This document shows, one piece after another, positions 40,185-64,000 of a DNA stretch of 64,000 bases. The stretch's first letter is position 1, and each line of letters begins with the position of its first letter. The notes under the pieces are model-generated. The model ran no database searches. It had not been told where the DNA came from and saw nothing but the letters and a program-made list of their open reading frames with translations. A program made the translations under genes and the position numbers. Source of the DNA: Calditrichota bacterium (lineage in GTDB: Bacteria; Zhuqueibacterota; JdFR-76; BMS3Abin05); NCBI GenBank assembly GCA_013151735.1, contig JAADHR010000179.1:12656-76655 (forward strand), written 5' to 3'.

Positions 40185-41561
40185 ATGCCCATGCGAATTT
40201 TATTGGTAGAAGATGAAAAACTCAAGCGCATTTCACTGACGGATGCTCTTGAGAGAAAAAATTTTGAGGTCATTCCCTGCGAAAACCCGATTGATGCGCT
40301 TGCTGTATTGGAAGAAGAAGCAGCCATAGACGTTATTGTCACGGACTTAAAAATGCCAAAAATGAATGGCATCGATTTCATTAAAAAAGTTCGTGAATTT
40401 GATAAAGAAATCCCTATTATTGTTGTAACCGCCTATGCCACGGTAGAAACGGCCGTGGATGCCATGAAATTGGGGGCCTACGATTACATCACCAAACCCT
40501 TTACAACCGATGAACTGATTCTTGTTCTGGATCGTCTCAGGGATTATCAGGAAATTGTGCGGGAGAACATTTATCTAAAAGCGAAAATACGAAGCCGTTA
40601 CCGCTTTGAAAACATTATTGGCCGCTCCAAACCCATGCAGGAAATTTATCGTATTATTCAAACCATAGCCGATTCGGATGCCACGGTCCTCATTCAGGGG
40701 GAGAGCGGTACGGGAAAAGAGCTTATTGCCAATGCGATCCATTTTAACAGCAACCGGCGAAACAAACCCCTTGTTTGTGTCAGTTGTGCCGCTCTAACGG
40801 AGAGCCTTTTTGAGAGTGAGATTTTTGGCCACGAAAGAGGGGCATTCACAGGAGCAGTAAAAGAGAAAAAAGGCCGTTTCGAACTGGCCGACGGAGGAAC
40901 GATCTTTCTGGATGATGTGGACGATATTCCCCTGTCGTCGCAGGTAAAACTGTTGCGAGTTCTTCAGGAAAAAGCGTTTGAGCGGGTGGGGGGTACAAAA
41001 AGCATTTCTGTGGATATTCGTGTGGTGGCCGCGACAAAGGTTAATCTTCTTGAAAAAGTCAAGCAGAATGAATTCAGGGAGGATTTGTACTACCGCCTGA
41101 ATGTTGTTCCCATTTTGTTGCCGCCGCTCCGGGAGAGAAAGGAAGATATTCCCCTGTTGATTGACCACTTCATGAGCAAATATCAAACAAAATCTCCCGT
41201 ACGAAAATTTTCAAATGACGCCATGAAAGTCATTCTTTCGTACGACTGGCCCGGGAATGTGCGGGAGTTGGAAAACATCGTAGAGCGCATTTGTACACTT
41301 ACCACGCATGAAATCGTTGAATTGGAGGATCTCCCGGATTTTCTTCTGGTTCCTTCAAAAACAACATTTAACTGGCGGGGATTTTATGGTCATCACCCTC
41401 AACTGGATTTTGCGGAACTGATTCGATCCTATGAAAAGGAGCTGCTGATTTGGGCACTTAACAAGGCCGGTGGAAATCGCAGCAAAGCGTCTCAATTATT
41501 GCAGTTAAAGCGTACAACTCTTCAGGATAAATTGAAGAAATATGGCCTTCAGGAGAAATAA
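40185..41561 (+). CDS. Sigma-54-dependent response regulator (NtrC family)
   Basis: REC (VIVTDLKMPKMNG), GESGTGKELIA, GAFTGA, ESEIFGH and a C-terminal HTH. Confidence 0.9.
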   Translation: MPMRILLVEDEKLKRISLTDALERKNFEVIPCENPIDALAVLEEEAAIDVIVTDLKMPKMNGIDFIKKVREFDKEIPIIVVTAYATVETAVDAMKLGAYDYITKPFTTDELILVLDRLRDYQEIVRENIYLKAKIRSRYRFENIIGRSKPMQEIYRIIQTIADSDATVLIQGESGTGKELIANAIHFNSNRRNKPLVCVSCAALTESLFESEIFGHERGAFTGAVKEKKGRFELADGGTIFLDDVDDIPLSSQVKLLRVLQEKAFERVGGTKSISVDIRVVAATKVNLLEKVKQNEFREDLYYRLNVVPILLPPLRERKEDIPLLIDHFMSKYQTKSPVRKFSNDAMKVILSYDWPGNVRELENIVERICTLTTHEIVELEDLPDFLLVPSKTTFNWRGFYGHHPQLDFAELIRSYEKELLIWALNKAGGNRSKASQLLQLKRTTLQDKLKKYGLQEK

Positions 41562-42141
41562 CAACACTGCCATCGTACTGGCGGGCGGAAGCAGCACCCG
41601 AATGGGCCGGCCAAAGGCTTTGCTTAATTTTGGCGGAATTTCGCTGATTGAGAGAGTGGTTCATCAATTGCGCCCGGTAACCGAGGATATTCGGATTATT
41701 ACAAATACGCCCGAATTGTACACATTTCTCAATTTACCCATGCACGCTGATTTTATTCCCGATAGCGGGCCCCTGGCCGGTATTTTTACCGGACTGGCGA
41801 TCACACGAAGCGAACCGGTTATTGTGATGGCTTGCGATACCCCCTTTATTACAACAGAGTATTTTTTCTTTTTACTGGACCAGTGGTCAGACAAGATAAG
41901 CTGTCTGATTCCCAAAATAGGCCGTTTTTATGAGCCGTTGGCGGGACTCTATTCCCATCGAGCCATGCCGGTGATCGAAGAATTATTAAAAAGCGGAAAC
42001 CGGAAAATTGAGTCCCTTTTTGACCGGGTTCCCACAAAAACGCTGAGCAAAAGAGATCTGGCTCAATTTGGGGATCTCCGTAAATTTTTCTGGAATATCA
42101 ATGATCCCGAAGGGTATGAAGAGGCGCTCAAACAGTTGTGA
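41542..42141 (+). CDS. mobA: Molybdenum cofactor guanylyltransferase
   Basis: AIVLAGGSSTRMGRPKALL N-terminal motif; length of about 199 aa. Confidence 0.8.
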   Translation: MAFRRNNNTAIVLAGGSSTRMGRPKALLNFGGISLIERVVHQLRPVTEDIRIITNTPELYTFLNLPMHADFIPDSGPLAGIFTGLAITRSEPVIVMACDTPFITTEYFFFLLDQWSDKISCLIPKIGRFYEPLAGLYSHRAMPVIEELLKSGNRKIESLFDRVPTKTLSKRDLAQFGDLRKFFWNINDPEGYEEALKQL

Positions 42142-42476: not shown

Positions 42477-42586
42477 TTTGAAAAATCTGTCGTAAAAATC
42501 CATAGAGAAACGCAGGAGACCGGGGAACGGATCAGAGAATATTGGATCTGCCTCCGGCAAATTAAATTTTTCCATTGGGAGGAAAC

Positions 42587-43219
42587 GTGGCTCATAAACA
42601 ATTTTTTGTTTCGCTTCAGGAAATGGTTCTAATTGCCCTTCTTGGTGCGCTTTGGGCAGCGGTGGAAATTCACGTTGGCTTTCTGCTGCACCTTGTAAAA
42701 TTACCATTTGCCGGAATTTTGTTAACGTTTTTTGGCGTGATCATTCTTTTGGTGGGGCGGACCTTTGTTCCACGGACGGGAACAGCCGTTCTAACCGGCT
42801 TGATTGCTGCTTTATCTACCTTCCTTTTCCTGGGCGCGATTGTCATCTACCCGATGATCGGCATCGTTATGGAGTCCATTTTTGTGGAAATCGGATTGGC
42901 CTTTCCCTTTTCTTCCCGAATCAATTACCAGGTCTCCGGTGTTCTGGGATTGCTGTGGAGTTTTTTCCACCCATTTATTGTTCAGGGGCTTGTTGCGGGT
43001 CTGGGATTTTGGAAGATATTCTCCATTGTCGTTGAAAAAGGGGCCAAACTTTTTCATCTGGCTCCCCAACAGGCGTTTATTGTTTTATTACTCCTGTTCA
43101 GTCTTTTTGCAGCGGCCGGATTACTGGCAGGTATGGTCGGGTGGAGTTTATCCAATCGCCTGCGTCACATGGTTTCGTACCACTGGCTCAGTCAAAAATC
43201 AATAAAAGGCACGGTGTGA
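42587..43219 (+). CDS. Small polytopic membrane protein (about 6 TM; ECF-S-component-like size), function unknown
   Basis: About 210 aa, hydrophobic throughout. Probable GTG start after GGGAGG. First gene downstream of the riboswitch candidate. Confidence 0.45.
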   Translation: MAHKQFFVSLQEMVLIALLGALWAAVEIHVGFLLHLVKLPFAGILLTFFGVIILLVGRTFVPRTGTAVLTGLIAALSTFLFLGAIVIYPMIGIVMESIFVEIGLAFPFSSRINYQVSGVLGLLWSFFHPFIVQGLVAGLGFWKIFSIVVEKGAKLFHLAPQQAFIVLLLLFSLFAAAGLLAGMVGWSLSNRLRHMVSYHWLSQKSIKGTV

Positions 43220-43288: not shown

Positions 43289-43834
43289 TTGTCTGAAATG
43301 ATACGTATTCTGATAACCGGTGAACAGGGTGTCGGAAAATCGACACTTACTCAAAACCTGGTTCAAAAACTGCATCTAAAGCCCTCGGGTTTTAAGACCC
43401 TTCCCATTTATGAAGGCCGCCAGAAATTGGGGTATTATCTTCAAGACCTGGAAACCGGAGAAAAGTATCTCTTTGCACACAGGCGTTTCAAAAGCGATAA
43501 GCGCTTGGGTGATTTTGGAATTCGTGAAGAGGTATTTGAGAAATTCGGAACACAAATTGTGGCGCAGGTGATGTCGAAAGAGGGCTGGATCGTCATTGAT
43601 GAGGTCGGAATTATGGAATCAGATTCCAGGCCTTTTGTGGATGCCCTGAAAAAGCTGTGGAAATCGCCCCGCAATCAGATCTGGGTCATCCAAAAAAGAA
43701 GCCCAATCCTGGGAATGCTCGTCAACCTGAGAGTGCCCTATCATCTATTCGACGTCACGGTTTCCAATCGTGGAGAATTGGCAAATGAAATTCTGAAAAC
43801 CATCCGGCACACTGCAAACAATGAAGAGGGTTGA
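43289..43834 (+). CDS. P-loop NTPase, THEP1/NTPase_1-like
   Basis: Walker A ITGEQGVGKST, Walker B WIVIDEVG; about 180 aa. Confidence 0.55.
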   Translation: MSEMIRILITGEQGVGKSTLTQNLVQKLHLKPSGFKTLPIYEGRQKLGYYLQDLETGEKYLFAHRRFKSDKRLGDFGIREEVFEKFGTQIVAQVMSKEGWIVIDEVGIMESDSRPFVDALKKLWKSPRNQIWVIQKRSPILGMLVNLRVPYHLFDVTVSNRGELANEILKTIRHTANNEEG

Positions 43835-44069: not shown

Positions 44070-45263
44070 ATGAATTCATCTGCCAACCCTGCGATATTCA
44101 AGCATATTATTGAAAATCTTAGTGAAGGGATTATTTTTGTTGACACCGAGAATCGGGTTGTTTTTTGTAACCATGCTGCAGAGGTCATTCGGGGAATCCG
44201 GGAGGAAGATATCATTGGCAACTCGGTTATGGATTGTCATCCGCCCAAAGTTCGCCCCGGCGTGGAAAAAATTATCGAAAGTTTTCGATCGAACAATGCC
44301 ACTGAATATCGTCGAATGGTTCCCTCAGTCAATGGGGATCGCTATTACGACAATGTCTACGCCGCAGTCCGGGATGAAAAGGGACGTTTTGTGGGGATGA
44401 TTTTGGTGAGCCGGGATGTGACCGAGAAGGTCAAGATGCAGAAAAAAATGGAAGACTACATGAAGGTTCTTGAAGATCATGTTCAGGAACGAACAAAGGA
44501 ATTGCAGGAGGCCTACAAGAAATTAAAGAACGCTCAAAATCAAATTATTCAGTCTGAAAAAATGGCTTCTCTCGGGCGCTTAATTGCCGGAGTGGCGCAT
44601 GAAATTAATAATCCTCTGGATGGCATTCAAAACAGCATCCACAATATTATCCAAAATCCTGACGACCAGATGAAAAACATGGTCTACCTCAATCTTATTC
44701 TTGAGAATATCGGACGGATTGAAACCATTGTAAAGCAACTCCTGGGTTATGCCCGTGCGCGAAGCTACCGAATGGAAGCGGTTTCTCTGAGCGAAATTAT
44801 CGAAAAAACGCTTATTTTGTTGGAATATCGACTGTCGCGTTCGGGGATCGAAGTCATTAAGCAGTATCCGGAAAAGGACATTCTCGTTTTGGGCGATGAC
44901 AACCATCTGCAGCAGGTTATGATGAATGTCTTTCTGAATGCCATTGATGCCATGCCCGAGGGCGGGGAACTGCGGATCGAGGTCAAAGCAGAGAGTGAAA
45001 AATGGGCAAAAATAGCGATTGAGGATACGGGCGTTGGAATTCCAAAAGATGATTTACCGCGGATTTTTGATCCCTTTTTTACAACCAAGGAAGTGGGAAA
45101 GGGAACGGGATTGGGGCTGGCCGTCAGTCTCGGAATTATCGAAGAACATGGGGGAAAGATCATCGTGAAAAGTAAAATTGGACGAGGAACCACATTTTCT
45201 ATTTTGATTCCGCCATTAACATCCAAACAAACCAAACCCATTCTCTATGCAGAGATGAAGTAA
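44070..45263 (+). CDS. Cytoplasmic PAS-domain sensor histidine kinase
   Basis: PAS (IIFVDTENRVVFCNHAAEVIRGI), H-box AGVAHEINNPL, G-boxes DTGVGIP...GTGLGLAVSLGII. Confidence 0.85.
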   Translation: MNSSANPAIFKHIIENLSEGIIFVDTENRVVFCNHAAEVIRGIREEDIIGNSVMDCHPPKVRPGVEKIIESFRSNNATEYRRMVPSVNGDRYYDNVYAAVRDEKGRFVGMILVSRDVTEKVKMQKKMEDYMKVLEDHVQERTKELQEAYKKLKNAQNQIIQSEKMASLGRLIAGVAHEINNPLDGIQNSIHNIIQNPDDQMKNMVYLNLILENIGRIETIVKQLLGYARARSYRMEAVSLSEIIEKTLILLEYRLSRSGIEVIKQYPEKDILVLGDDNHLQQVMMNVFLNAIDAMPEGGELRIEVKAESEKWAKIAIEDTGVGIPKDDLPRIFDPFFTTKEVGKGTGLGLAVSLGIIEEHGGKIIVKSKIGRGTTFSILIPPLTSKQTKPILYAEMK

Positions 45264-45486: not shown

Positions 45487-46698
45487 TTGGAATCTATCCA
45501 ATCCATTGTTGCCACGATTTTAAAATACACAAAGACACTTCCTTCTGAAAATATCTCATTAATGAAATCTGTAGGTTGTATTGCAGGTGAAAACATCATT
45601 GCATCTGCCGATTTTCCGTCACGCACCCTTTCCCTGATGGATGGTTTTGCATCCCGCCACGAATGGCTGGAAAAAGCATCAAAAAAAACCCCTGTTACTT
45701 TAAAACGATCCCAAAGAAGCGTCTCAAAAAGGGTGTTTGAGAAAGATGTTGCCATTTCTGCCAGACTATTTGAACCCCTGCCCGAGGGTTTTGATGTTGT
45801 ATTTGGAGAAGAAGAGGTATCCGTGTCGCATCAGACAATTACCATTGAGAAACCCTTTCAAAAATGGACGAATGTGTTGCCTGCGGGTTCAAAAATACGC
45901 AAAGGCCGGGTGTTGCTGTCAAAGGGAAGCGAAATCACTTGTTTAGATATCGGTACGGCATCGTTCCTGGAGTTAGAATCCTTGCCCGTTATTCGAAAGC
46001 CGCGGGTGGCTTTGATTTTTGTTTGCCCGTCCATTCAAAATGTCAGGGACAGAGAGACGCTTGTAAAATACCTGAAGGGAATTTCAAATACCATTGCTGC
46101 GCAGGTCATAAAATATCGCGGTCTTGTCAGACGCTATAAAATATTATCTGATTTTTCCGGGGCCGATCGTGTCACAATCTCGCGTGCTTTGAAAAATGAT
46201 TTGATCATTTTTATTGGCGAATGCTCAAAAAGGTACCAGGATATTTTGATTGGCGTATTGGAGAAGAAAAATGTTCAATTTCATTTACACACCCAGAATG
46301 TGTACCCGGGATTATTCTTCTCATTCGGAACATTTGAAGACCGATTGATTTTCTTGCTCCCCAACGATCCCATTGGCGCCATTCTGAATTTTGAGGAATT
46401 TGTCCGGCCCGCGCTTTTTAAAATGAGAGGCAAAAAACAAATCACTCACGATGTGATCAATGCACGATTGGACAAGACCATTAATAAGTCTGAAAACCGG
46501 ATATCACTTGTTCAGGCCTCGGTTCACTTGAGAAATGGTGTTTTTTATGCCGTCCCTGTTGAAGAAAATCCATTTTCCAACCCGGAAAACCGGCGCAAGG
46601 TCAACGGCATTATTGTCCTTCCGCAAAATGTAAGGCAGCTTCCAAGGGGAAGCGTCACGCGTGTGCAAATACTCCGACAACCGGACTGGAATGATTAG
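45487..46698 (+). CDS. MoeA-like (molybdopterin molybdotransferase family) protein, divergent
   Basis: N-terminal ...FPSRTLSLMDGFA resembles MoeA ...VPGFDNSAMDGYA. PVIRKPRVALI, PGLFFSFG and LLPNDPIGA align with MoeA blocks. The GGVSVG motif is not conserved. Confidence 0.45.
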   Translation: MESIQSIVATILKYTKTLPSENISLMKSVGCIAGENIIASADFPSRTLSLMDGFASRHEWLEKASKKTPVTLKRSQRSVSKRVFEKDVAISARLFEPLPEGFDVVFGEEEVSVSHQTITIEKPFQKWTNVLPAGSKIRKGRVLLSKGSEITCLDIGTASFLELESLPVIRKPRVALIFVCPSIQNVRDRETLVKYLKGISNTIAAQVIKYRGLVRRYKILSDFSGADRVTISRALKNDLIIFIGECSKRYQDILIGVLEKKNVQFHLHTQNVYPGLFFSFGTFEDRLIFLLPNDPIGAILNFEEFVRPALFKMRGKKQITHDVINARLDKTINKSENRISLVQASVHLRNGVFYAVPVEENPFSNPENRRKVNGIIVLPQNVRQLPRGSVTRVQILRQPDWND

Positions 46699-46888: not shown

Positions 46889-48376
46889 ATGAAAAAGTAT
46901 GTGATTGCGTTGTTTGTTGGTTTATTGACAGTTACACTGGTTTCGCCGTCGTTTGCGCAAAATGGAAAAAAGATCAAGGTTAATGGCCTGTACACGGCCT
47001 GGGGATTATCTCAGCAAAAATTTTTCTTTGGCAAGAATAATGGCAATGACGATTATTTTGTCCAGATGCTGCGATTCAAAATTCAGGCGGCCGCCAATGA
47101 CAATGTAAAGGCCGTCACGCGTTTTGATATTGCTCAGGGATGGTGGGGTGTGGATAATGCCCTGAGAAGTGCTAACCGGCCATATGGTGCTTATGGTGGC
47201 AGCAGCCTGTTTGATTTCAAAGATACAAATTATCTCTTCCACGTAGATCAGGCCTACATGGAATTTAAGGTGCCTGTGGCGCCAATCGTCATGCGCGTTG
47301 GACGGCAGCAATATCGGCTTGGAAATAAACTGGTTCTGGATAACAACCTGGATGGGATTCAGGCCGATGTAAAATTGAGTGATGTGCGGAAGATCACAGT
47401 AGGTTGGGCAAAGGTGTCTGAAGGAATTGACGGCTTGAGCGATAACGGTGTGGGGGCCGGCAAAAGTGCCTTTGGCGATACGGATGGGAGAGACGCTGAT
47501 GTCGTGTTTGCCAATTACACCTGTACGGCGTTTAGCTTTGCTAAAATTAATGCATTTGGATTGTATTACCGGGATGCCGGTGATGGAGACGGCAAAACCT
47601 ACGTTCCGGACGATCTCCAGTATTTCCGGGCACGTTTTACCCCGAATATTAGCTCTCTGGCCATTATTGGACTGGCCCCGAATTTCAAATTTGGGAAACT
47701 GGCTGTTGATGGAGAGTTCGATTATCTGACAGGAAAAGACAATGTTAAAAATACTACCTTCGGGCCCAAACAACGGCATGATATCAACAATGGAGATATT
47801 TCGGGTTTCAACCTTTACCTCAAACCTACCTTTGCCGCTACACCAAAAGTAAAATTGGGCGGCGTGTTCGGACTGGGTTCCGGTGATAAAGATGTTACAA
47901 GCGGAAAGGGAAATGTAAACAAGCTGCGAACATCCGGTTTCTTCTATGTAACGGAAATCTGGGAAGATTCCATTATGCCTGATGAAGAGGGCATTACACC
48001 TCAGGGGCTGGGTGCTCCCAATACACGCGGCTATCGAGAATTGGAAAACACCACTCTGGTACAAGCCAATGTAACGCTCAAACCAACACCTAAAGTGAGT
48101 CTCTTCGGTTCATACACATTCATTAAAGCCACACAACCGATTCATGCCTGGACGGTCGATGCCAATGGGAAAACAAGCATTTTGGCCGATAATTCCACTG
48201 CACTGGGAACCGAAGCCGATTTTAAAATTGATATGAAAATTTACCCGAAACTGATCTGGACGGTTCGCGGAGGTATTTTTATGCCCGGTGACGCCGCTGG
48301 CTATTTAATCAACGGAACGAACAAATGGAATGACAAACCTATTGAGTTAAAGACAACCCTTACGGTAAAATTTTAG
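46889..48376 (+). CDS. Secreted outer-membrane beta-barrel protein (porin-like)
   Basis: Signal peptide ...SPSFAQ. Alternating amphipathic strands. C-terminal ...TLTVKF. Confidence 0.5.
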   Translation: MKKYVIALFVGLLTVTLVSPSFAQNGKKIKVNGLYTAWGLSQQKFFFGKNNGNDDYFVQMLRFKIQAAANDNVKAVTRFDIAQGWWGVDNALRSANRPYGAYGGSSLFDFKDTNYLFHVDQAYMEFKVPVAPIVMRVGRQQYRLGNKLVLDNNLDGIQADVKLSDVRKITVGWAKVSEGIDGLSDNGVGAGKSAFGDTDGRDADVVFANYTCTAFSFAKINAFGLYYRDAGDGDGKTYVPDDLQYFRARFTPNISSLAIIGLAPNFKFGKLAVDGEFDYLTGKDNVKNTTFGPKQRHDINNGDISGFNLYLKPTFAATPKVKLGGVFGLGSGDKDVTSGKGNVNKLRTSGFFYVTEIWEDSIMPDEEGITPQGLGAPNTRGYRELENTTLVQANVTLKPTPKVSLFGSYTFIKATQPIHAWTVDANGKTSILADNSTALGTEADFKIDMKIYPKLIWTVRGGIFMPGDAAGYLINGTNKWNDKPIELKTTLTVKF

Positions 48377-48705: not shown

Positions 48706-49164
48706 ATGCCAAAAAAGTCTTTATGGATGCTTCCGGTTTTCATTGGACTGGTCGGGTTGTTGATTTTTCTTTTTTCGAATCGGAACGGCGGTTGGGTAAA
48801 CGCTTCACCCAAAGCCCGCGTTCTTGTTCAAGCGGATCAACACCCCGGCTGGCCGGAAAATAGAGCGGAGCTGGAAAGCAAAACCTGCCGGGGGTGTCAT
48901 ATGACGACCACTCCCGACGTGTACAAAGAATGGGCAAACGGCAGACATGGAATTGCAAATGTACGCTGCACCGTTTGCCACGGTTCATTTGTAGATTTTA
49001 AGAGTGTCCCTTCGGTGGAAACGTGCCGGAGCTGCCATGCCAAAGAATACGATCAAATGGTTCTCCCGGAAGGGAAAACAAAAATGACCTGCTGGCAGTG
49101 TCATCCGGCGCATTATGAATCGGTTCATCGGATTGATAAAACCAAACCTTCACCCTTTCATTAA
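48706..49164 (+). CDS. Membrane-anchored tetraheme cytochrome c (NapC/NrfH size class)
   Basis: N-terminal TM helix; 4 CXXCH (CRGCH, CTVCH, CRSCH, CWQCH); strong RBS AAGGAGG. Confidence 0.7.
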   Translation: MPKKSLWMLPVFIGLVGLLIFLFSNRNGGWVNASPKARVLVQADQHPGWPENRAELESKTCRGCHMTTTPDVYKEWANGRHGIANVRCTVCHGSFVDFKSVPSVETCRSCHAKEYDQMVLPEGKTKMTCWQCHPAHYESVHRIDKTKPSPFH

Positions 49165-49185
49165 ATAAAGGAGGTGAGTGTAGTT

Positions 49186-51546
49186 ATGACAATGAAAAGA
49201 CGTGATTTTGTGAAGACCACGGCAGCCGCAGCCGTTGCATCGGCTCTGGGTGTCAGCCTGAAAATCCCTTCAGCCGGAGCGGAAATTCCGCCGGGCGAAA
49301 AGGATGTGGATAAGTGGGTGAAGGGAACCTGTCGATTTTGCGGCGTCGGATGCCGCATGTATCTGGGTGTAAAAAATGGGAAACCGGTGGCGGTAAAAGG
49401 GGTTGAGGATTCCAAAACAAACTTTGGGTTTCTCTGTATGAAGGGATTTTTACAGTATAAAATCTACAACCATCCGGACCGGTTGAAATATCCCCTGCTG
49501 CGCCAGAAGAACGGTGAATTCAAGCGGATTTCCTGGGACAAAGCCATGGACATTATGGCGAAAAAATTTGCCCATTCCATTAAAAAATATGGGAAGGATT
49601 CCGTTGCCTATTACGGATCGGGTCAGGCGTTGACCGAAGAAACCTATCTCATTCAGAAGATTTTTCGGGCTGGAATTGGCAACAGTAACGTAGAAGGAAA
49701 TCCCCGGCTTTGTATGGCCAGTGCGGTAGGCGGGTATGTGACGACCTTTGGAAAAGATGAACCCTCCGGATCCTATTCCGACATCGAGCATGCCACCTGC
49801 TTTTTTCTGATTGGAACCAATCAGGCAGAGGCGCACCCCGTTCTTTTCCGGCGGGTTATGAACCGAAAACTCTCCAATCCGGACGGCATCAAGGTGATTG
49901 TGGCGGATCCCCGTGTCACCCCAACATCCAGAATTGCAGACCTGCACATGAAATTCCTGCCGGGAACCGATCTGGCTGTTATGCATGCCATGGCCAATGT
50001 TATCGTGAATGAAGGACTGTACAACAAAAATTTTGTGGATCATTTTGTTGACTTCAAAACGATGAAAAACGGTAAGCCGGCCAGCATGACATTTGAAGAA
50101 TACAAGACATTCCTGAATGATTTTACTCCGGAAAAGGCTGAAAAAATCTCCAAATGCCCGGCGGATCAAATTCGTCAGGCCGCGCGATGGTTTGCCACAT
50201 CCAGTGCTACCATGTCCATGTGGACGATGGGACTCAATCAACGTATTCGCGGGGTTTGGGCCAACAATCTGGTGCATAACCTGCATCTGCTTACCGGCCA
50301 AATCGGAAAGCCGGGTGCGGATTCTTTTTCGCTTACCGGACAACCCAATGCCTGCGGTGGCGTGCGCGAAGCCGGTGGGCTGTGCCACATTCTTCCGGGC
50401 CATCGATTGGTGGCTAAAAAGGCACACCGGGAACAAATTGCAAAATTGTGGACGATCCCGGTGGAACGATTGCCCAAAAAACCGGGCTATCATACCGTCG
50501 CCATGTTTAAAGCCCTGACGGAAGGAAAGATTAAGGTTATGCTGATTCACACCACCAATCCGGCACAATCCTTACCGGATTTAACTCCGGTGATAAAGGG
50601 TTTTAAGCGAAAAGATAATTTTATTATCGTAACGGATATTTTCCCGACCCGAACCACACAACTGGCGGATCTGGTACTACCAGCTGCTTTTCTGTTCGAA
50701 AAATCGGGCGTTTACGGATGCACCGAACATCGTTCTCAACTGACACAAAAGGCCCTTGATCCACCCGGGGAAGCACGGGAAGAAATCCAGGTCTTTCGTG
50801 AATTTGCCCTTCGCCTGGGCAAAGAAATGAAGGATCCGATCTACAAACATATCGTAAAGGGATTGCACACGTCGGAAGATATCTGGAATGATTATCGCCG
50901 GTGCACCAAGGGAACGGATGTAGACCTCTGGGGCGCCACTTACGAACGGCTCAAAAAAGCGCCGGATGGCCTGCAATGGCCCGTGCCCACGGTAACCTCT
51001 CCCGGAACACCCAAGCGATATGTTAAAGGAATTGATCCGCTGGCCAAAGGCAAGGCCTGGATTCAGTTTTACGGACATCCGGATGGACGCGCCTTTGTGT
51101 GGGCCAGGCCTTACAAGGGTCCGGCCGAACCGCCCGATGCAAGCTACCCGTTTTATTTGACGACCGTACGCGTAATTGAACAGTGGCACACGATGACGAT
51201 GACGGGGCGGGTTCCGGAACTTCTCCGCGGATTTCCGTATGCCTATGTGGAAATTAATCCGAAAGACGCGAAACGCCTGGGAATCAAACATGGCGATATG
51301 ATTGAAATCAAAAGCCGCCGCGGAAAAGTGGAGGTTCCGGCAAAAATAGTGGAAGGCCCGCGCGAGGGACTCATAGCCGTTCCGTGGCATGACCAGAATT
51401 TCAATCGAATGATTAATTTTGTGACCATTGAAGCGGTTGATCCGGGATCAAAAGAGCCTGAATATAAAATCTGTGCGGTTAAGATCAGAAAAATATCCGG
51501 TCCCAAACGCCTTAAACCCACCACGGTGGAGATGAAGCTGGTTTAG
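49186..51546 (+). CDS. napA: Periplasmic nitrate reductase catalytic subunit (molybdopterin oxidoreductase, NapA family)
   Basis: Tat motif RRDFVKTTAAAAV. [4Fe-4S] motif C-x2-C-x3-C-x27-C (CRFCGVGCRMY...LCMKGF). Followed by napD/napG/napH. Confidence 0.85.
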   Translation: MTMKRRDFVKTTAAAAVASALGVSLKIPSAGAEIPPGEKDVDKWVKGTCRFCGVGCRMYLGVKNGKPVAVKGVEDSKTNFGFLCMKGFLQYKIYNHPDRLKYPLLRQKNGEFKRISWDKAMDIMAKKFAHSIKKYGKDSVAYYGSGQALTEETYLIQKIFRAGIGNSNVEGNPRLCMASAVGGYVTTFGKDEPSGSYSDIEHATCFFLIGTNQAEAHPVLFRRVMNRKLSNPDGIKVIVADPRVTPTSRIADLHMKFLPGTDLAVMHAMANVIVNEGLYNKNFVDHFVDFKTMKNGKPASMTFEEYKTFLNDFTPEKAEKISKCPADQIRQAARWFATSSATMSMWTMGLNQRIRGVWANNLVHNLHLLTGQIGKPGADSFSLTGQPNACGGVREAGGLCHILPGHRLVAKKAHREQIAKLWTIPVERLPKKPGYHTVAMFKALTEGKIKVMLIHTTNPAQSLPDLTPVIKGFKRKDNFIIVTDIFPTRTTQLADLVLPAAFLFEKSGVYGCTEHRSQLTQKALDPPGEAREEIQVFREFALRLGKEMKDPIYKHIVKGLHTSEDIWNDYRRCTKGTDVDLWGATYERLKKAPDGLQWPVPTVTSPGTPKRYVKGIDPLAKGKAWIQFYGHPDGRAFVWARPYKGPAEPPDASYPFYLTTVRVIEQWHTMTMTGRVPELLRGFPYAYVEINPKDAKRLGIKHGDMIEIKSRRGKVEVPAKIVEGPREGLIAVPWHDQNFNRMINFVTIEAVDPGSKEPEYKICAVKIRKISGPKRLKPTTVEMKLV

Positions 51547-51623
51547 TGACGTAAGGGAAAATGACGGGCACCGATTTCTGTCTCTTCATCTGAAATCGGT
51601 GCCTTCAATTAAAGCGGAGGAGC

Positions 51624-51905
51624 TTGTTTATGCCGATTACCGGGGTTGCAATACAAACAATGCCTGATAAAACGAGCTTTGTTTACGATGTACTGAATGA
51701 AATGAAAGCGGTCAGCCTCTACGGAGATGATAAAAAAGGGAACATTATCGCCGTTCTGGAGACCGAAAATAAAAAGGCCCTGGAGGAATTAAACCAACAG
51801 ATAGAGGCCATAGACGGGGTCATAAAAGTGATGGGCGTTTATCATTACTTTGAGGACGATATTCCGTCCCCGAAGCAAAAAGAAAATGCAAAAAATGAAT
51901 TCTGA
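51624..51905 (+). CDS. napD: NapD-like chaperone
   Basis: 93 aa; ...VSLYGDDKKGNIIAVLETEN...IDGVIKVMGVYHYFED parallels E. coli NapD ...LVYHQQEE. Confidence 0.7.
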   Translation: MFMPITGVAIQTMPDKTSFVYDVLNEMKAVSLYGDDKKGNIIAVLETENKKALEELNQQIEAIDGVIKVMGVYHYFEDDIPSPKQKENAKNEF

Positions 51906-52518
51906 AGAAAACGGGTCGAAATCGCTTGATCGAAGGACGGTTCTGAAATCATTCTTGACTTTTGGAGCCGGGATGGGGTTATCCGTTTTACGGCCCGAGA
52001 ACCTGTTTTCTTCGGTGTTATGGTCTCCAATCGGGCGAAATCATCTGAGGCCCCCCGGGGCGCTTCCGGAGGCCGACTTTGTGGCAGCCTGCATTCGGTG
52101 CGGACGATGTGCCGAAGTGTGCCCCTATTATTCCATTGAACCGATTCGTTTGTCGGGCGGCCTGCAGGCAGGTACACCGCTGATTGATGTGGAGCACATT
52201 GCCTGTTACCTGTGCATGGAATGCGTAAAGGTTTGTCCCACCGGCGCGCTCCAAAACGTTCCTGCAGAAAAGGCAGGGATGGGGTTGGCACATATCGACC
52301 AGAAACGGTGCTGGGCCTACAATGGAAAAGCAATTTGTCGGGCCTGTTACGATGCCTGTCCTTTCAAAAATGTGGCGATTCAGCTGATTCGCCTAAAACC
52401 AATTATTATCGAAGATAAATGTGTGGGCTGTGGGCTTTGCGTGGCTGCCTGTCCCGTCCAGATTCCGCGTGCAGTAAATGTGGATCCGTTGGAGGATCAC
52501 CTGAAACGGAGTGGCTAA
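51895..52518 (+). CDS. napG: NapG-like periplasmic ferredoxin (4x[4Fe-4S])
   Basis: Tat motif RRTVLKSF. Four CxxCxxCxxxCP clusters. Start ATG overlaps the napD stop (ATGAATTCTGA). Confidence 0.75.
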   Translation: MNSEENGSKSLDRRTVLKSFLTFGAGMGLSVLRPENLFSSVLWSPIGRNHLRPPGALPEADFVAACIRCGRCAEVCPYYSIEPIRLSGGLQAGTPLIDVEHIACYLCMECVKVCPTGALQNVPAEKAGMGLAHIDQKRCWAYNGKAICRACYDACPFKNVAIQLIRLKPIIIEDKCVGCGLCVAACPVQIPRAVNVDPLEDHLKRSG

Positions 52519-53384
52519 AATTGGCTGACAAAACCAAAAAGAAAAGGATCTATTTTAGATATCGTCGGACGATTCAGATAGTGGGTTTTTTGTTTTTGCT
52601 AATTGTTCCCTTTTTAAATCTGTTTGGGTTTCATTTTTTTAACGGATGGTACCAATCGCTGGGCATCGGGTATTGGTTTATTGCTTCCCCTCTCGAATCA
52701 TTTGAGAGTTTTTTGATCTCGCGAACGTTTTTTTTAACCCTGTTTGTATCATTTTTAACGCCATTTATTTTAGCATTTATTCTGGGACGTGTATTTTGCA
52801 GCTGGCTTTGTCCGTTTGGGCTTCTGTCCGAGTGGGTGTCGGATTTCCGTCAGTGGGCGTATCGAAAATGGGGACACTCTCATCATCCGCCGGAGGGCCT
52901 TTTTGCGATTCCGCGATGGATAGTCTGGGTTATTCTGACGGCTGAGATTTTGGCGTCGATGATTGTGGGAACGTCTCTGTTTTCAATCTATTCCCCTCCG
53001 GGTGTGATTGGCCGGGAAGCCATGCGGCTGGCTTTTTTCCACATTTTGGGTGGGGAAATTCTTTTTATTTTGATCTTTTTGACATTTGAGCTTTTTGTCG
53101 CACGAAGAGGATTTTGCAGATATGTCTGCCCGCTGGGAGCCACTCTCTCATTGGTCGGCCAAAAACGCCTTCTGAAGATTGAGTTTGAATCCGCGAAATG
53201 TCAGAGAATCTGCAAAATTTGTGAAAATCACGAAATCTGTACCTGGGGTCTTATGCCGAAATTGGGAGAAGGAGCGTCGGTTTATTGTACCAATTGCGGA
53301 GATTGCATTGACATTTGTCCGTTTGATGCCCTTCGGTTCAACTGGAAAAACAAAACGGTAAGGAGTCCCGAAAAATATGGCTGA
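52419..53384 (+). CDS. napH: NapH-like membrane-bound iron-sulfur protein
   Basis: TM helices. CSWLCPFG and CRYVCPLG motifs. C-terminal 2x[4Fe-4S] (CQRICKIC...C, CTNCGDCIDICP). True start uncertain (TTG at 52521 also possible). Confidence 0.7.
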   Translation: MCGLWALRGCLSRPDSACSKCGSVGGSPETEWLKLADKTKKKRIYFRYRRTIQIVGFLFLLIVPFLNLFGFHFFNGWYQSLGIGYWFIASPLESFESFLISRTFFLTLFVSFLTPFILAFILGRVFCSWLCPFGLLSEWVSDFRQWAYRKWGHSHHPPEGLFAIPRWIVWVILTAEILASMIVGTSLFSIYSPPGVIGREAMRLAFFHILGGEILFILIFLTFELFVARRGFCRYVCPLGATLSLVGQKRLLKIEFESAKCQRICKICENHEICTWGLMPKLGEGASVYCTNCGDCIDICPFDALRFNWKNKTVRSPEKYG

Positions 53385-53952
53385 AAGTCCGGGGAAAACA
53401 ACACTCAATCGAAGGGAGTTTTTTTCATTGGGTCTGGGAACCCTGAAGGAACGGGTGCCCTTGCAAAAATCTCCGCAAAGCCGGCGAAATCGGCGGCCCA
53501 TCCTGAGGCCGCCCGGAGCCGTTTCAGAAGAAATACTGGGTCAGGAATGTACCAGTTGCGGCGATTGTGTGGTTGCCTGTCAATTTGAAGCCATTCGGTT
53601 GCTGGATCATCGGGCGGGAAAATATCAGGGTACCCCGGCAATCATTCCGAGGATTCAACCCTGTTTGTATTGTGAGGATTTTCCCTGTGTGACGGCCTGC
53701 AAGGAGGGAGCCCTTACAAAAGATCATCTTAAAATGGGGGTGGCTGAACTCGATTCCAGGCGGTGTTTCAACACGAAGGGAGGGTGGTGCGATGCATGTT
53801 TCCAAAAATGTCCGTTTTCGGGGGAGGCCATCCGATTGAACGAGAGACTTCAATTGGAAATCAATGCCGATTTCTGCACGGGGTGCGGACTGTGTGAACA
53901 TGCTTGTCCGCTGTCGCCGCCGGCGATTCGGATTGTTCCCCTGGAGATATGA
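53377..53952 (+). CDS. Tat-exported ferredoxin-type 4x[4Fe-4S] protein (NapF/NapG/MauM-like)
   Basis: RREFFSLGLGTL Tat motif; four Cys clusters (CTSCGDCVVAC, CLYCEDFPCVTAC, CDACFQKCP, CTGCGLCEHACP). Confidence 0.65.
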   Translation: MAESPGKTTLNRREFFSLGLGTLKERVPLQKSPQSRRNRRPILRPPGAVSEEILGQECTSCGDCVVACQFEAIRLLDHRAGKYQGTPAIIPRIQPCLYCEDFPCVTACKEGALTKDHLKMGVAELDSRRCFNTKGGWCDACFQKCPFSGEAIRLNERLQLEINADFCTGCGLCEHACPLSPPAIRIVPLEI

Positions 53953-54103
53953 TCCTCCCAATAAAGGGACCGTGCGTGTTCAGGGCGGTTTGGATTATTT
54001 GGAAGGGACAATAATTTGATTTTTTGAGATCAGATTATTTTTGTACACTTACCATAAATTTCGTTATAATTCAGGAATCCAATCCACTAAAATGGAGGAA
54101 TCA

Positions 54104-54577
54104 ATGGCAGAAGAAAAGAATGACGTACAAGAAGAAGGGCGCCGGAGTTTCCTGGCGAATCTTCTGTATGGAGGAGGAATCCTTGCCGCATTTGGGGGAT
54201 TTACAGCGGGTCTTCTTCGGTTCATTATACCCGAAAAACGGCCGCCCAAAATGAAAGAGGTTTTGGTTGCCCATTTCAATGAAATTGAAGTGGGGAATGC
54301 CAAGCCTATGGAGGTGGCCGGACAGAAGATTTTTGTGGTTCATTTAAAAGAGGGATATCGCGTTCTTTCAGCCATCTGTACGCATCTGGGGTGTATTGTT
54401 CAATGGCAGAAAGAAAACCAGGAATTCTTTTGTCCCTGCCACAAGGGCCGCTATCGTCCTGATGGAACGGTGATTTCCGGACCGCCTCCCCGACCTCTGG
54501 ATCACTTTCGAGTGGAGGTAAAAACAGGGCTGGTTTATGTCTGGATGAAAGAAAAATACACAGGAGGGCTTGTATGA
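54104..54577 (+). CDS. Rieske [2Fe-2S] subunit of a cytochrome bc-type complex
   Basis: RRSFLANLL Tat-like signal/TM. Box I CTHLGC, box II CPCHKGRY. GGAGG RBS before MAEEKN. Confidence 0.85.
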   Translation: MAEEKNDVQEEGRRSFLANLLYGGGILAAFGGFTAGLLRFIIPEKRPPKMKEVLVAHFNEIEVGNAKPMEVAGQKIFVVHLKEGYRVLSAICTHLGCIVQWQKENQEFFCPCHKGRYRPDGTVISGPPPRPLDHFRVEVKTGLVYVWMKEKYTGGLV

Positions 54578-55626
54578 GCGTACTTAAAAAGGAATGGTGG
54601 GTGGAAAGGGTCCCTCTGGATTACGAGAAAGCGATAGGAATTGTACGAGATCTTGTGATCAAGGAACCCATTCCCGTACACATGAAAAAATGGTACTATG
54701 CAATGGGAGCCACGCCCCTGATTTTATTCTTGCTTCAGGTGACAACCGGGCTTTTGCTGACATTTTATTTTATCCCCTCACCAGATATGGCTTACGAGAG
54801 TGTACGGCATATTCAACAGGATGTTCCTCTGGGGTTCTGGATTCGGGGATTGCACCGCTGGGGAGCCAACCTGATGATTATAGCGGTTTTTCTCCACATG
54901 CTGCGTGTCTTTTTTACCCGGGCATATCGCAAACCTCGGGAAATCAACTGGATACTGGGAACCCTTCTTTTGGGAACGACCCTGACAATGGGGTTTACGG
55001 GATATTCCCTTACCTACAACCAGCTTTCGTATTGGGCAACAACGGTTGGAACCAACCTCGTTAATCAACTTCCCCTGATCGGACACTGGCTTCTCACATT
55101 TATGCGGGGCGGAGAAGAGGTCTCTGCCAACACCCTGACCCGATTTTTTGTTTTTCATGAATTGTTTGTGCCTTCAATTTTATTTATTCTCATCGCCCTG
55201 CACATTTTTATGATTCATCTTCACGGCGTGGCCGAATTGGAAGGCCACGAAGGCGAGGGGTACTACGCCTTTTATCCTGATCATTTTGTTAAAGGAATTT
55301 ACATCACCCTGTTTCTGCTGGTTTTCATGAGTACACTTGCAATTTTAATTCCGCCGGGAATCGGAGTTCCGGCAGATCCCACCCAAACACCTATGCATAT
55401 CAAACCCGAGTGGTATTTTTATTCGGTCTACGGACTACTAAAACTTGTGCCGCTGTGGCTGGGTGTGTATCTGGTTCTGGCATTTATGATTGTACTGGTT
55501 TTCTGGCCTTTTATCGATGATTGGTTTCGGGCAAAATGGCCCAAAGCGCCTATCGGTTATGTCCTGGGCGGAACAACCGCTGTACTGGCGCTGGTATTTA
55601 CAATAATGGAACTATTAGCAAAATAA
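54574..55626 (+). CDS. Cytochrome b subunit of a Rieske/cyt b complex (b6 plus subunit-IV-like fused)
   Basis: 350 aa; haem-ligand His pairs in helices (…RGLHRWGANLMIIAVFLHMLRVFF…, …FHELFVPSILFILIALHIFMIHLHG…); ATGA overlap with the Rieske gene. Confidence 0.85.
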   Translation: MSVLKKEWWVERVPLDYEKAIGIVRDLVIKEPIPVHMKKWYYAMGATPLILFLLQVTTGLLLTFYFIPSPDMAYESVRHIQQDVPLGFWIRGLHRWGANLMIIAVFLHMLRVFFTRAYRKPREINWILGTLLLGTTLTMGFTGYSLTYNQLSYWATTVGTNLVNQLPLIGHWLLTFMRGGEEVSANTLTRFFVFHELFVPSILFILIALHIFMIHLHGVAELEGHEGEGYYAFYPDHFVKGIYITLFLLVFMSTLAILIPPGIGVPADPTQTPMHIKPEWYFYSVYGLLKLVPLWLGVYLVLAFMIVLVFWPFIDDWFRAKWPKAPIGYVLGGTTAVLALVFTIMELLAK

Positions 55627-55645
55627 ATAAAAGGAGGGTATTTTT

Positions 55646-57253
55646 ATGGCCAAGGGAGATGGAACAAAGTATCTGGTCGGAATTTTTTCGATTCTATTTT
55701 TGGTGACCCTGGTAATTGTGGCCGGCGTTGAGACGAAAAAGAGCGAATCTACAAAACCCGAAGTTGAACTAACCGGCAAGAGCAAACAATGTGTCACCTG
55801 TCACGAACGAAAAGGAATCGCCGTTAAACAAATTGAACAGTGGGAAGATAGCAAACATGCGGAATATGGCATTGGATGTATCGAATGCCATGCCGCAAAG
55901 AAAGGCGATTTTGATGCCTTTACCTGTCCGGGTAGTGATATTTTAGTGGGCCGTTACCCGACCCCCAAAGATTGTAGTGTTTGTCATGATAAGGAAGTGA
56001 AAGAATTTGAAAACAGCAAGCATGCTCACCAATTCTGGCTTTTGCATAATGATGACCGTGCCGTGTATGAATTTCCCTCTGCGGTTAAGCACGGATGCGA
56101 ACAATGCCACAGAATTGGAAATATGTGGCCCGACAGCAGCGTGGGCGACTGCTCGGCCTGCCATACCAGGCACTCCTTTAAAATTGCCCAGGCCCGAAAT
56201 CCGAAGACATGCGGAGAATGTCACCTGGGGCCAGACCATCCGCATATTGAGATTTATGAAGAATCCAAGCACGGAAACATCTGGGCGGCCGAAGGAAAAG
56301 ATTGGGACATGGGGTACGAAACGACGAATCACGAAAAAATCCCAATTAAAGCCCCCGTGTGCACAACCTGTCACATGGATGGTAGTCCCACACAGCCCAT
56401 GACCCACAACGTGAGTGCACGCCTGGCCTGGGAGTCACAGGCCCCGTGGAGTTATCGCACGGTCTGGGATGAGGAGCACCTGGGTACCTGGCAGAAAAAA
56501 CGGGAACGTATGAAAGAGATTTGTCTTAACTGTCATGCTCCCGATTTTGTTAATGAATACTTTTTGGAAGCCGACCTTGTCAATCTTCAATACAACGAAA
56601 TTCGGCGTCAGTTTGTTTACTGGAATAAAAAATTGTATAAGGAAAAATTGATGTATCCCTGGAAAACCGGCGACCGCCTCTGGACAAATCCCGTATTGGA
56701 CGGCTATGATCAGGAGCCGGAGCGCGCGAAATATTATGCCTGGCACCATGAAGGACGGCGTTTCCGCCACGGAGCCGAGATGATGGGGGCCGATTTTACC
56801 CAGTGGCATGGCATCTGGGAAGTTCAGCAAGACTTTATTGAAATGCTGAACTGGGCAGCCGACCATGGGGATGCCGAGGCCAAGGTGTGGCAGAAATCCA
56901 ATAATCCCACTAAAATGATTACATTCAAACTATATGATGTTCCAGGGAATGAATGGGGAATCAACACGGAGCTTTATAAACCCAACTTTGTGTACCAGAT
57001 GTTTCCCGATTATTGGACCCGCATTAAATCCAATGTGAAAGCCGCTTATGAAAAGGGACTCCTTTCACAGGATCAATGGGAATTATGGTTGAAGCGATAC
57101 AATAACAAAGAATACTACATGGGTACGAAATTTCCGGAACACCCGAAATGGAAATTCTACAAGGAACGTGATCAAAGGGATCTGAAACACATGAAGGAAT
57201 CGGTTATTGATCTGAATCTTCCGGGAGAATCCTTTTACAAAGACATGCACTGA
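55646..57253 (+). CDS. Membrane-anchored octaheme cytochrome c, HAO/ONR/Otr superfamily (candidate nitrite or hydroxylamine reductase)
   Basis: N-terminal TM; 8 CXXCH (CVTCH, CIECH, CSVCH, CEQCH, CSACH, CGECH, CTTCH, CLNCH); no CXXCK. Confidence 0.75.
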   Translation: MAKGDGTKYLVGIFSILFLVTLVIVAGVETKKSESTKPEVELTGKSKQCVTCHERKGIAVKQIEQWEDSKHAEYGIGCIECHAAKKGDFDAFTCPGSDILVGRYPTPKDCSVCHDKEVKEFENSKHAHQFWLLHNDDRAVYEFPSAVKHGCEQCHRIGNMWPDSSVGDCSACHTRHSFKIAQARNPKTCGECHLGPDHPHIEIYEESKHGNIWAAEGKDWDMGYETTNHEKIPIKAPVCTTCHMDGSPTQPMTHNVSARLAWESQAPWSYRTVWDEEHLGTWQKKRERMKEICLNCHAPDFVNEYFLEADLVNLQYNEIRRQFVYWNKKLYKEKLMYPWKTGDRLWTNPVLDGYDQEPERAKYYAWHHEGRRFRHGAEMMGADFTQWHGIWEVQQDFIEMLNWAADHGDAEAKVWQKSNNPTKMITFKLYDVPGNEWGINTELYKPNFVYQMFPDYWTRIKSNVKAAYEKGLLSQDQWELWLKRYNNKEYYMGTKFPEHPKWKFYKERDQRDLKHMKESVIDLNLPGESFYKDMH

Positions 57254-57284
57254 TAAAGACATTCTTGAAAAATTGAGAATACAA

Positions 57285-57320
57285 GAAGCGGAAGCACGTG
57301 CTTCCGCTTCTTTGGTTTTG
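57285..57320 (+). terminator. Rho-independent terminator
   Basis: Perfect GAAGCGGAAGCAC|GTGCTTCCGCTTC palindrome followed by TTTGGTTTT. Confidence 0.65.
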
Positions 57321-57716: not shown

Positions 57717-58298
57717 ATGAGAATTAGAAAAATGAAAATTGGCCTGGGTGTGATGTTTGCCGCCGGCTTAATTTTAACCTGGATGAGCATGGGGATATCC
57801 GGCACACCGCAGGCAAAAAAAGGTCAGTTTAAGTACATTGGCGTATTAAAATGCAAAATGTGCCACAACAGCGCCCGGAAAGGAAATCAATTTAAAATCT
57901 GGAAAAGCAGTCCTCATGCCAAGGCCTATGAAGCTCTTGGAACCGCTGAGGCAAAAGCGATTGCCAAGAAAAAAGGGATTGCTGACCCGCAAAAAAGCCC
58001 GAAATGTTTAAAATGTCATGTAACGGGTTATGGAGAGCCCAAAACGGCTTTTGGACCCAAATATCACATGGAAGATGGGGTTACCTGTGAGGCCTGCCAC
58101 GGTCCGGGATCGGCTTATTGGAAATCAAGTGTGATGCGAAAATTATATAAGGGCCAAATTGATCCCAAAACCGTCGGATACATTCAACCGAATGAAAAAA
58201 CGTGCGTACAATGCCATAATCCGGAAAGTCCGACCTATAAGAAATTTGTTTATGCAAAATTCTGGAAAGAAATTGCCCACAATATTCCCAAGAAATAG
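57717..58298 (+). CDS. Periplasmic tetraheme cytochrome c (c554/c3-like size)
   Basis: Signal peptide; 4 CXXCH (CKMCH, CLKCH, CEACH, CVQCH); RBS AAGGAGGG. Confidence 0.75.
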   Translation: MRIRKMKIGLGVMFAAGLILTWMSMGISGTPQAKKGQFKYIGVLKCKMCHNSARKGNQFKIWKSSPHAKAYEALGTAEAKAIAKKKGIADPQKSPKCLKCHVTGYGEPKTAFGPKYHMEDGVTCEACHGPGSAYWKSSVMRKLYKGQIDPKTVGYIQPNEKTCVQCHNPESPTYKKFVYAKFWKEIAHNIPKK

Positions 58299-62731: not shown

Positions 62732-63697
62732 ATGAAAGAGGAACCATTAAAAAAGGGTGAAATTGCCGCCATCGAAAAAGATTTAAAGGAGTTTATCCGG
62801 CAGCAGATTCAAGACCATCTTGCAAATGAAGTAAATGAATCCTACGCAGAAGAGCTGGAAAAGAAATTTTTGAACCGGTTTGAACAGCAATTGGATAGGC
62901 TGAAAGGGGAACTTCATCAAGAAATATTGGAAGAAATAGAATATAAAAAGAAACAAATTCTTCACAAGAAAAAGAAGGAACGAAAAGAAAAGGAAACCAT
63001 TCAATCGGTAGAGAGATTCTCACTGAGTATTCGTATCCAGCATGTTATCATGTTCACATCGGTGCTGATTCTCATTTTCACGGGATTACCCATAAAATTT
63101 CACGACGCGGCGCTCTCAAGGTTCTTAATCACGCTATATGGAGGCATTCAAACGACGCGCTTTATTCATCGGATAGGGGCTACAGGCCTGATTTTTGTGG
63201 GTGTTTTTCATCTGATCTATCTCATTTTTACAAAAGACGGACGAAACAATTTTAAGGAGCTCTTTCCAAGTAAAAAAGATTTTATTGATGTATATCAGGC
63301 CATCCGGTATTTTTTGGGACTCAGTGAAGAAAAACCCAAATTTGGCCGGTTTACGTATATTGAAAAATTCGATTATTGGGCGGTGTACTGGGGGATGATT
63401 GTCATGATTGGAACAGGCCTTATTTTGTGGTTTGAAAATATCTCTCTCCGTATTCTGCCAAAATTCATATCGGACATCGCCATCGAAGTGCACAGCGATG
63501 AAGCCATGCTGGCAACACTGGTCATTGTTATCTGGCATTTTTACAATGCTCACTTTAATCCGTCCAAATTTCCGCTGAATAAAACGATTTTTACCGGAAG
63601 AATATCCATCGAAGATTTGAAGGAGGAACATCCTCTCGAATATGAGAAACTCCTTAAAGAAGGAAAAATTCCAAAGCTGGAGGAAGAAGATTCATGA
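62732..63697 (+). CDS. Dihaem cytochrome b-like membrane subunit with N-terminal charged coiled-coil extension
   Basis: C-terminal 220 aa parallel the 60941 protein (…[14 protein letters not shown]…[15 protein letters not shown]…[10 protein letters not shown]…). N-terminal ~95 aa rich in E/K heptads. Confidence 0.65.
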
Positions 63698-64000
63698 AGA
63701 GTTTCTTGGCCGATTTTTGGAATCTTATACGAAAACATTATCGATTTTTGGTGATGGTTTTTCTCATTATTTTTGGAGTGCTTGTTTTTGTTGATCTTGG
63801 ATTTTATACGTCTTCGGTTATAGCTCCCAAAACGTGTGCTGTCTGCCATTATGAGACATCGGTCGTGAATCGCTGGGAAAATTCCTACCATGCCGACGTC
63901 AGTTGTTCCAAATGTCACACCTACAGTCCGGGAACCTACATTCGATTCATCTGGAAATATTGGACGGGGACATACCGCTTTCAAATCAATCCGCACATTA
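63694..64000 (+). CDS. NapC/NirT/NrfH-like membrane-anchored cytochrome c. The 3' end runs off the window.
   Basis: N-terminal TM, then CAVCH and CSKCH within the first 70 aa; ATGA overlap with the upstream gene. Confidence 0.5.

Follow-up and report, generated by a model that had tools for sequence, protein, structure and literature searches.

Nitrate reductase genes linked to Rieske/cytochrome b and HAO-type octahaem cytochrome genes in a Calditrichota bacterium: a proposed NrfA-independent pathway from nitrate to ammonium

Background

The closest described counterpart of the locus analysed here was published by Kublanov et al. in 2017 for Caldithrix abyssi, which carries the same nine-gene set (Cabys_2564-2556) and is without NapB, NapC and NrfAH (PMC5317091). 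Nitrate reduction was described as implemented in this bacterium and the onward reduction of nitrite to ammonia was presumed. Clusters of the napMADGH type that lack NapC have been reported from Caldithrix, Deferribacter, Thermosulfurimonas and Dissulfuribacter (PMC5317091, PMC6896113). Among octahaem cytochromes, IhOCC has been described as a nitrite reductase (PMC9250108) and the anammox protein HAOr as a nitrite reductase producing NO, not ammonium (PMC9250108, PMC12485887), while Kuste4574 is merely assumed to make NO like HAOr (PMC12485887).

Here we present an analysis of 64 kb of DNA from a Calditrichota relative of C. abyssi; we refer to this whole stretch as the window. The cluster that it holds is not new, since both the gene set and the proposed function were published for C. 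abyssi. What we add is the class of the NapA enzyme, the clade of the octahaem cytochrome, the state of its Asp-His pair and cross-linking tyrosine position and the spread of the gene linkage over many loci. The reading that we consider rather probable is a respiratory, NrfA-independent pathway from nitrate to ammonium, encoded by a cluster widespread among related uncultured bacteria.

Results and discussion

A nap module of the NapB-independent class

Nine tightly packed genes, all on the + strand, occupy 48.7-57.3 kb of the window in the order NapM-like tetrahaem cytochrome, NapA, NapD, NapG, NapH, a second NapG/NapF-like ferredoxin, Rieske protein, b6-type cytochrome b and octahaem cytochrome. 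An earlier note on this DNA had described such a cluster, with nap genes lacking napB and napC physically joined to Rieske/cytochrome b and HAO-like octahaem genes; its open reading frames are present where it placed them, on the + strand, and its family assignments hold. The nine genes are orthologous to those of C. abyssi (L014 among the loci compared), but their internal order differs.

NapA (49174 or 49186 to 51546; Pfam and NCBIfam matches) has the Fe4S4 and Mo-bisMGD domains, a Tat motif (RRDFVK) and a CMAS motif. It matches the monomeric enzyme of D. desulfuricans (PDB 2NAP/2JIO) at 1e-265 versus about 1e-167 for NapAB-type enzymes, and its sequence thus places it in the monomeric, NapB-independent Desulfovibrio class. 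The absence of NapB is therefore expected, and the missing NapB and NapC, previously read as an anomaly, are nothing of the kind, given that napMADGH clusters without NapC are documented elsewhere. NapGH is a quinol dehydrogenase module in its own right.

The first gene of the cluster (48706..49164) encodes a tetrahaem c-type cytochrome of the Pfam c7/c554 type with four CxxCH motifs and no significant Pfam match to NapC/NirT. It is similar to the N-terminal haem module of anammox HOX, has a homologue in L014 and stands at the position of the C. abyssi gene called napM (PMC5317091). It had been labelled a membrane tetrahaem cytochrome; the haem count stands, but instead of an anchor the hydrophobic N-terminal stretch could be a signal cleaved between VNA and SP.

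The remaining nap genes encode the chaperone NapD (51624 or 51630 to 51905; PF03927, 2e-17), two poly-ferredoxins and a membrane subunit, the last three with NCBIfam matches below cut-off. NapG (51850 or 51886 to 52518; NapG 7e-36) is predicted to be Tat-exported by its RR motif (DRRTVL) and has four 4Fe-4S motifs. NapH (52419 or 52521 to 53384; NapH 1.5e-35), the Fe-S subunit of the quinol dehydrogenase, has four predicted transmembrane segments and, in its translation, two CX3CP motifs (CSWLCP and CRYVCP); its start is probably a TTG 2 nt past the napG stop. The second four-cluster ferredoxin (53377..53952; NapG 1e-39, NapF 2e-13) has an RR motif and a merely short hydrophobic region, and a second ferredoxin gene also occurs in L008, L009 and L014, there between napA and napD.

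A b6-type Rieske/cytochrome b pair and an IhOCC-like octahaem cytochrome

The Rieske 2Fe-2S subunit (54041 or 54092 to 54577; PF00355) has a Tat motif, a transmembrane anchor and the boxes CTHLGC and CPCHKGRY. Its best PDB matches are the menaquinol-type protein of C. tepidum (8HN2, 1e-19) and Kuenenia Kuste4569 (9RK4, 9e-19). The cytochrome b (54574..55626; Pfam; PDB cytochrome b6 7R0W, 3.5e-48) is a fusion of b6 and subunit IV with the histidine pairs H94/H108 and H195/H210 and a Qo-site PEWY at 278, but the haem cn-binding cysteine of b6 is replaced by alanine.

The octahaem cytochrome (55646..57253) has eight CxxCH motifs, no CxxCK in a motif scan and a conserved N-terminal transmembrane helix at residues 8-30. 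The earlier assignment to an HAO/ONR family is right as to HAO and wrong as to ONR: by sequence the protein falls within the HAO/IhOCC clade and outside ONR/NrfA, and its PDB matches rank IhOCC, the closest relative, above HAOr and HAO. We know of no respiration of nitrogen oxides in the organism from which IhOCC comes. Superposition of the AlphaFold model on solved structures is poor (TM 0.32), which makes its active-site geometry tentative. As for the catalytic site, the Asp-His pair of HAO is kept as Asp197-His198, which is invariant in 65 family members. The cross-linking tyrosine of HAO (Tyr467) aligns with Gln386, with no tyrosine within 3 residues of it, in an alignment of about 20 % identity. 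A conserved pair together with glutamine in place of tyrosine is compatible with a reductase, and the protein is probably a nitrite (and hydroxylamine/NO) reductase. The NrfA-independent nitrite reduction suggested earlier is thus its most likely predicted role.

Reduction could stop short of ammonium, at NO as in anammox HAOr or at hydroxylamine in a 'reverse HURM', with Hcp or other enzymes encoded beyond the window completing the pathway or detoxifying the product. HAOr, the second-best solved relative and the closest one from anammox bacteria, does yield NO (PMC9250108, PMC12485887), the Rieske protein matches Kuste4569 of the anammox R/b-3 complex almost as well as its best hit, and schemes combining Hao and Hcp were put forward for Deferribacter and Nautilia (PMC6896113). 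We nevertheless regard such partial reduction as unlikely: no hcp or NO reductase gene is found among the annotated open reading frames of the window, C. abyssi with its orthologous cluster is a presumed ammonium former (PMC5317091), and the closest relative, IhOCC, is listed as a nitrite reductase (PMC9250108).

Linkage across loci ties the Rieske/cytochrome b pair to the octahaem gene

Of 72 informative loci, at least 59 have the Rieske and cytochrome b genes immediately before the octahaem gene; among the 58 whose octahaem homologue reaches 53 % identity, the figure is at least 55. At 40-53 % identity the pair is mostly absent (present in 4/14). Where both sides could be followed for 8 kb (fully informative loci), at least 25 of 32 have napA no more than 10 kb from the octahaem gene. 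In many loci the Rieske/cytochrome b/octahaem trio forms a separate unit that precedes HK-RR-OMP-napMA(D)GH. Recurrence in dozens of independent contigs puts the arrangement far outside what chance would give. The phyla with the trio include Calditrichota, KSB1, Marinimicrobia and Ignavibacteriota, so that, with the C. abyssi cluster of 2017, the view that such modules are known mainly from anammox bacteria is outdated.

Because Rieske and cytochrome b accompany the octahaem gene, not nap, across loci, the bc module is better read as the octahaem protein's donor than as the unconventional quinol-to-nitrate route proposed before. That route would have the trio mainly supplying NapA, the octahaem protein standing in for cytochrome c1 as a multihaem wire (menaquinol to bc module to octahaem to NapM to NapA), the nitrate step being electrogenic and nitrite handled elsewhere. 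NapC is absent and NapM requires a donor, nap and the trio adjoin in most loci, and Qcr-dependent Nap respiration was reportedly described in Campylobacter by Garg et al. in 2018. Electron transfer from Rieske/cytochrome b to NapM is also among the options of Kublanov et al. (PMC5317091). Yet a complete quinol dehydrogenase module, NapGH, is already present; the trio occurs with no nap genes in view in L011, L027, L061 and L063; a pure wire has no need for the invariant Asp-His pair; and the nearest characterised octahaem relatives are enzymes. We therefore give this route a low probability.

Junctions and transcription signals

Several ATGA overlaps had been taken as a sign of one transcription unit. 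Only Rieske/cytochrome b (54574-54577) has this overlap; napH and the second ferredoxin gene overlap by ATGGCTGA, napD and napG by 11-20 nt, and gaps of 2-21 nt separate napM/napA, napG/napH and cytochrome b/octahaem (19 nt), with 83 nt between napA and napD. A strong intrinsic terminator closes the unit at 57283..57312 (13-bp stem, then a T-run; fold z-score -5.1, equally stable shuffles 0/200). What makes a single transcription unit uncertain is the AT-rich spacer of 139-151 nt that parts the nap genes from Rieske (53953..54091) and contains a hairpin with a T-run (fold z-score -0.8, not significant) and a promoter-like site at 54042-54070. The spacer is suggestive of a possible boundary between two transcription units, and the nap and bc-octahaem modules may for this reason be separately regulated. 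That they are functionally unrelated neighbours, the bc-octahaem module being separately transcribed and serving another acceptor or detoxification, is very doubtful: the spacer, the separate operons in Melioribacteraceae-type loci and the different multihaem/cytochrome b561 genes just downstream speak for it, but nap-octahaem linkage survives rearrangement (fused, nap downstream, divergent), is kept even without Rieske/cytochrome b (L076, L077, L082-L088) and comes with a common two-component system between or beside the modules.

Proposed pathway and flanking genes

In the nitrate-to-ammonium pathway that we favour, nitrate would probably enter through a conserved porin and be reduced in the periplasm by monomeric NapA, matured by NapD. 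Electrons would come from menaquinol through NapGH and/or the NapM-like cytochrome, a proposed periplasmic carrier to NapA. The octahaem cytochrome, held to the membrane by its N-terminal helix, would take the place of cytochrome c1/f in the b6-type complex and reduce nitrite, most likely fully to ammonium, so that quinol oxidation by a Q-cycle would conserve energy at the nitrite step.

The candidate porin for nitrate/nitrite (46889..48376) is an outer-membrane beta-barrel (Pfam Alginate_exp, 3e-9; NCBIfam outer membrane homotrimeric porin 1.6e-18, below cut-off) whose homologues immediately precede napM in 33 of 39 informative loci. Two proteins would help to build the Mo-bisMGD cofactor of NapA: a MobA-like guanylyltransferase (41542..42141; PF12804, 3e-34), presumably acting in its maturation and with homologues close to the cluster in many related loci, and a MoeA-like molybdenumtransferase (45487..46698; MoeA_N, 9e-21; homologues in L026, L038, L054-56, L081 and L084). 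A sigma-54-dependent response regulator with receiver, AAA+ and Fis HTH domains (40185..41561; Pfam) probably regulates the locus. With the PAS sensor histidine kinase at 44070..45263 (Pfam PAS, HisKA, HATPase_c), a conserved neighbour, it corresponds to homologous pairs beside nap/octahaem genes in L002, L004, L010, L025, L033, L039 and L043-L058. Between them lie hyp214 (42575..43219), a conserved protein with multiple predicted membrane segments and no Pfam or NCBIfam match, whose homologue immediately follows the octahaem gene in 10 of 59 loci and lies nearby in others, and a THEP1-type NTPase (43289..43834; PF03266, 3e-32; PRK13695 below the NCBIfam cut-off), paired with hyp214 homologues in L009, L022 and L004. 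All these genes are on the + strand.

The window contains only five complete c-type cytochromes, and the earlier statement that it lacks NrfAH and NapC stands for complete genes. A partial open reading frame cut by the 3' edge (63691-63999), with a transmembrane helix and two CxxCH motifs, does match NrfH (TIGR03153, 1.5e-8) and NapC/NirT (PF03264, 7e-4), both below curated cut-offs; an nrfHA-type system may exist elsewhere in the genome. Past the terminator, a cytochrome c554-like tetrahaem protein (57717..58298, + strand; PF13435, 5e-21) is a possible redox partner, though one of uncertain membership in the system: in the Planctomycetales locus L005 a homologue (40 % identical) separates cytochrome b from the octahaem gene, but L003 and L004 show no such adjacency.

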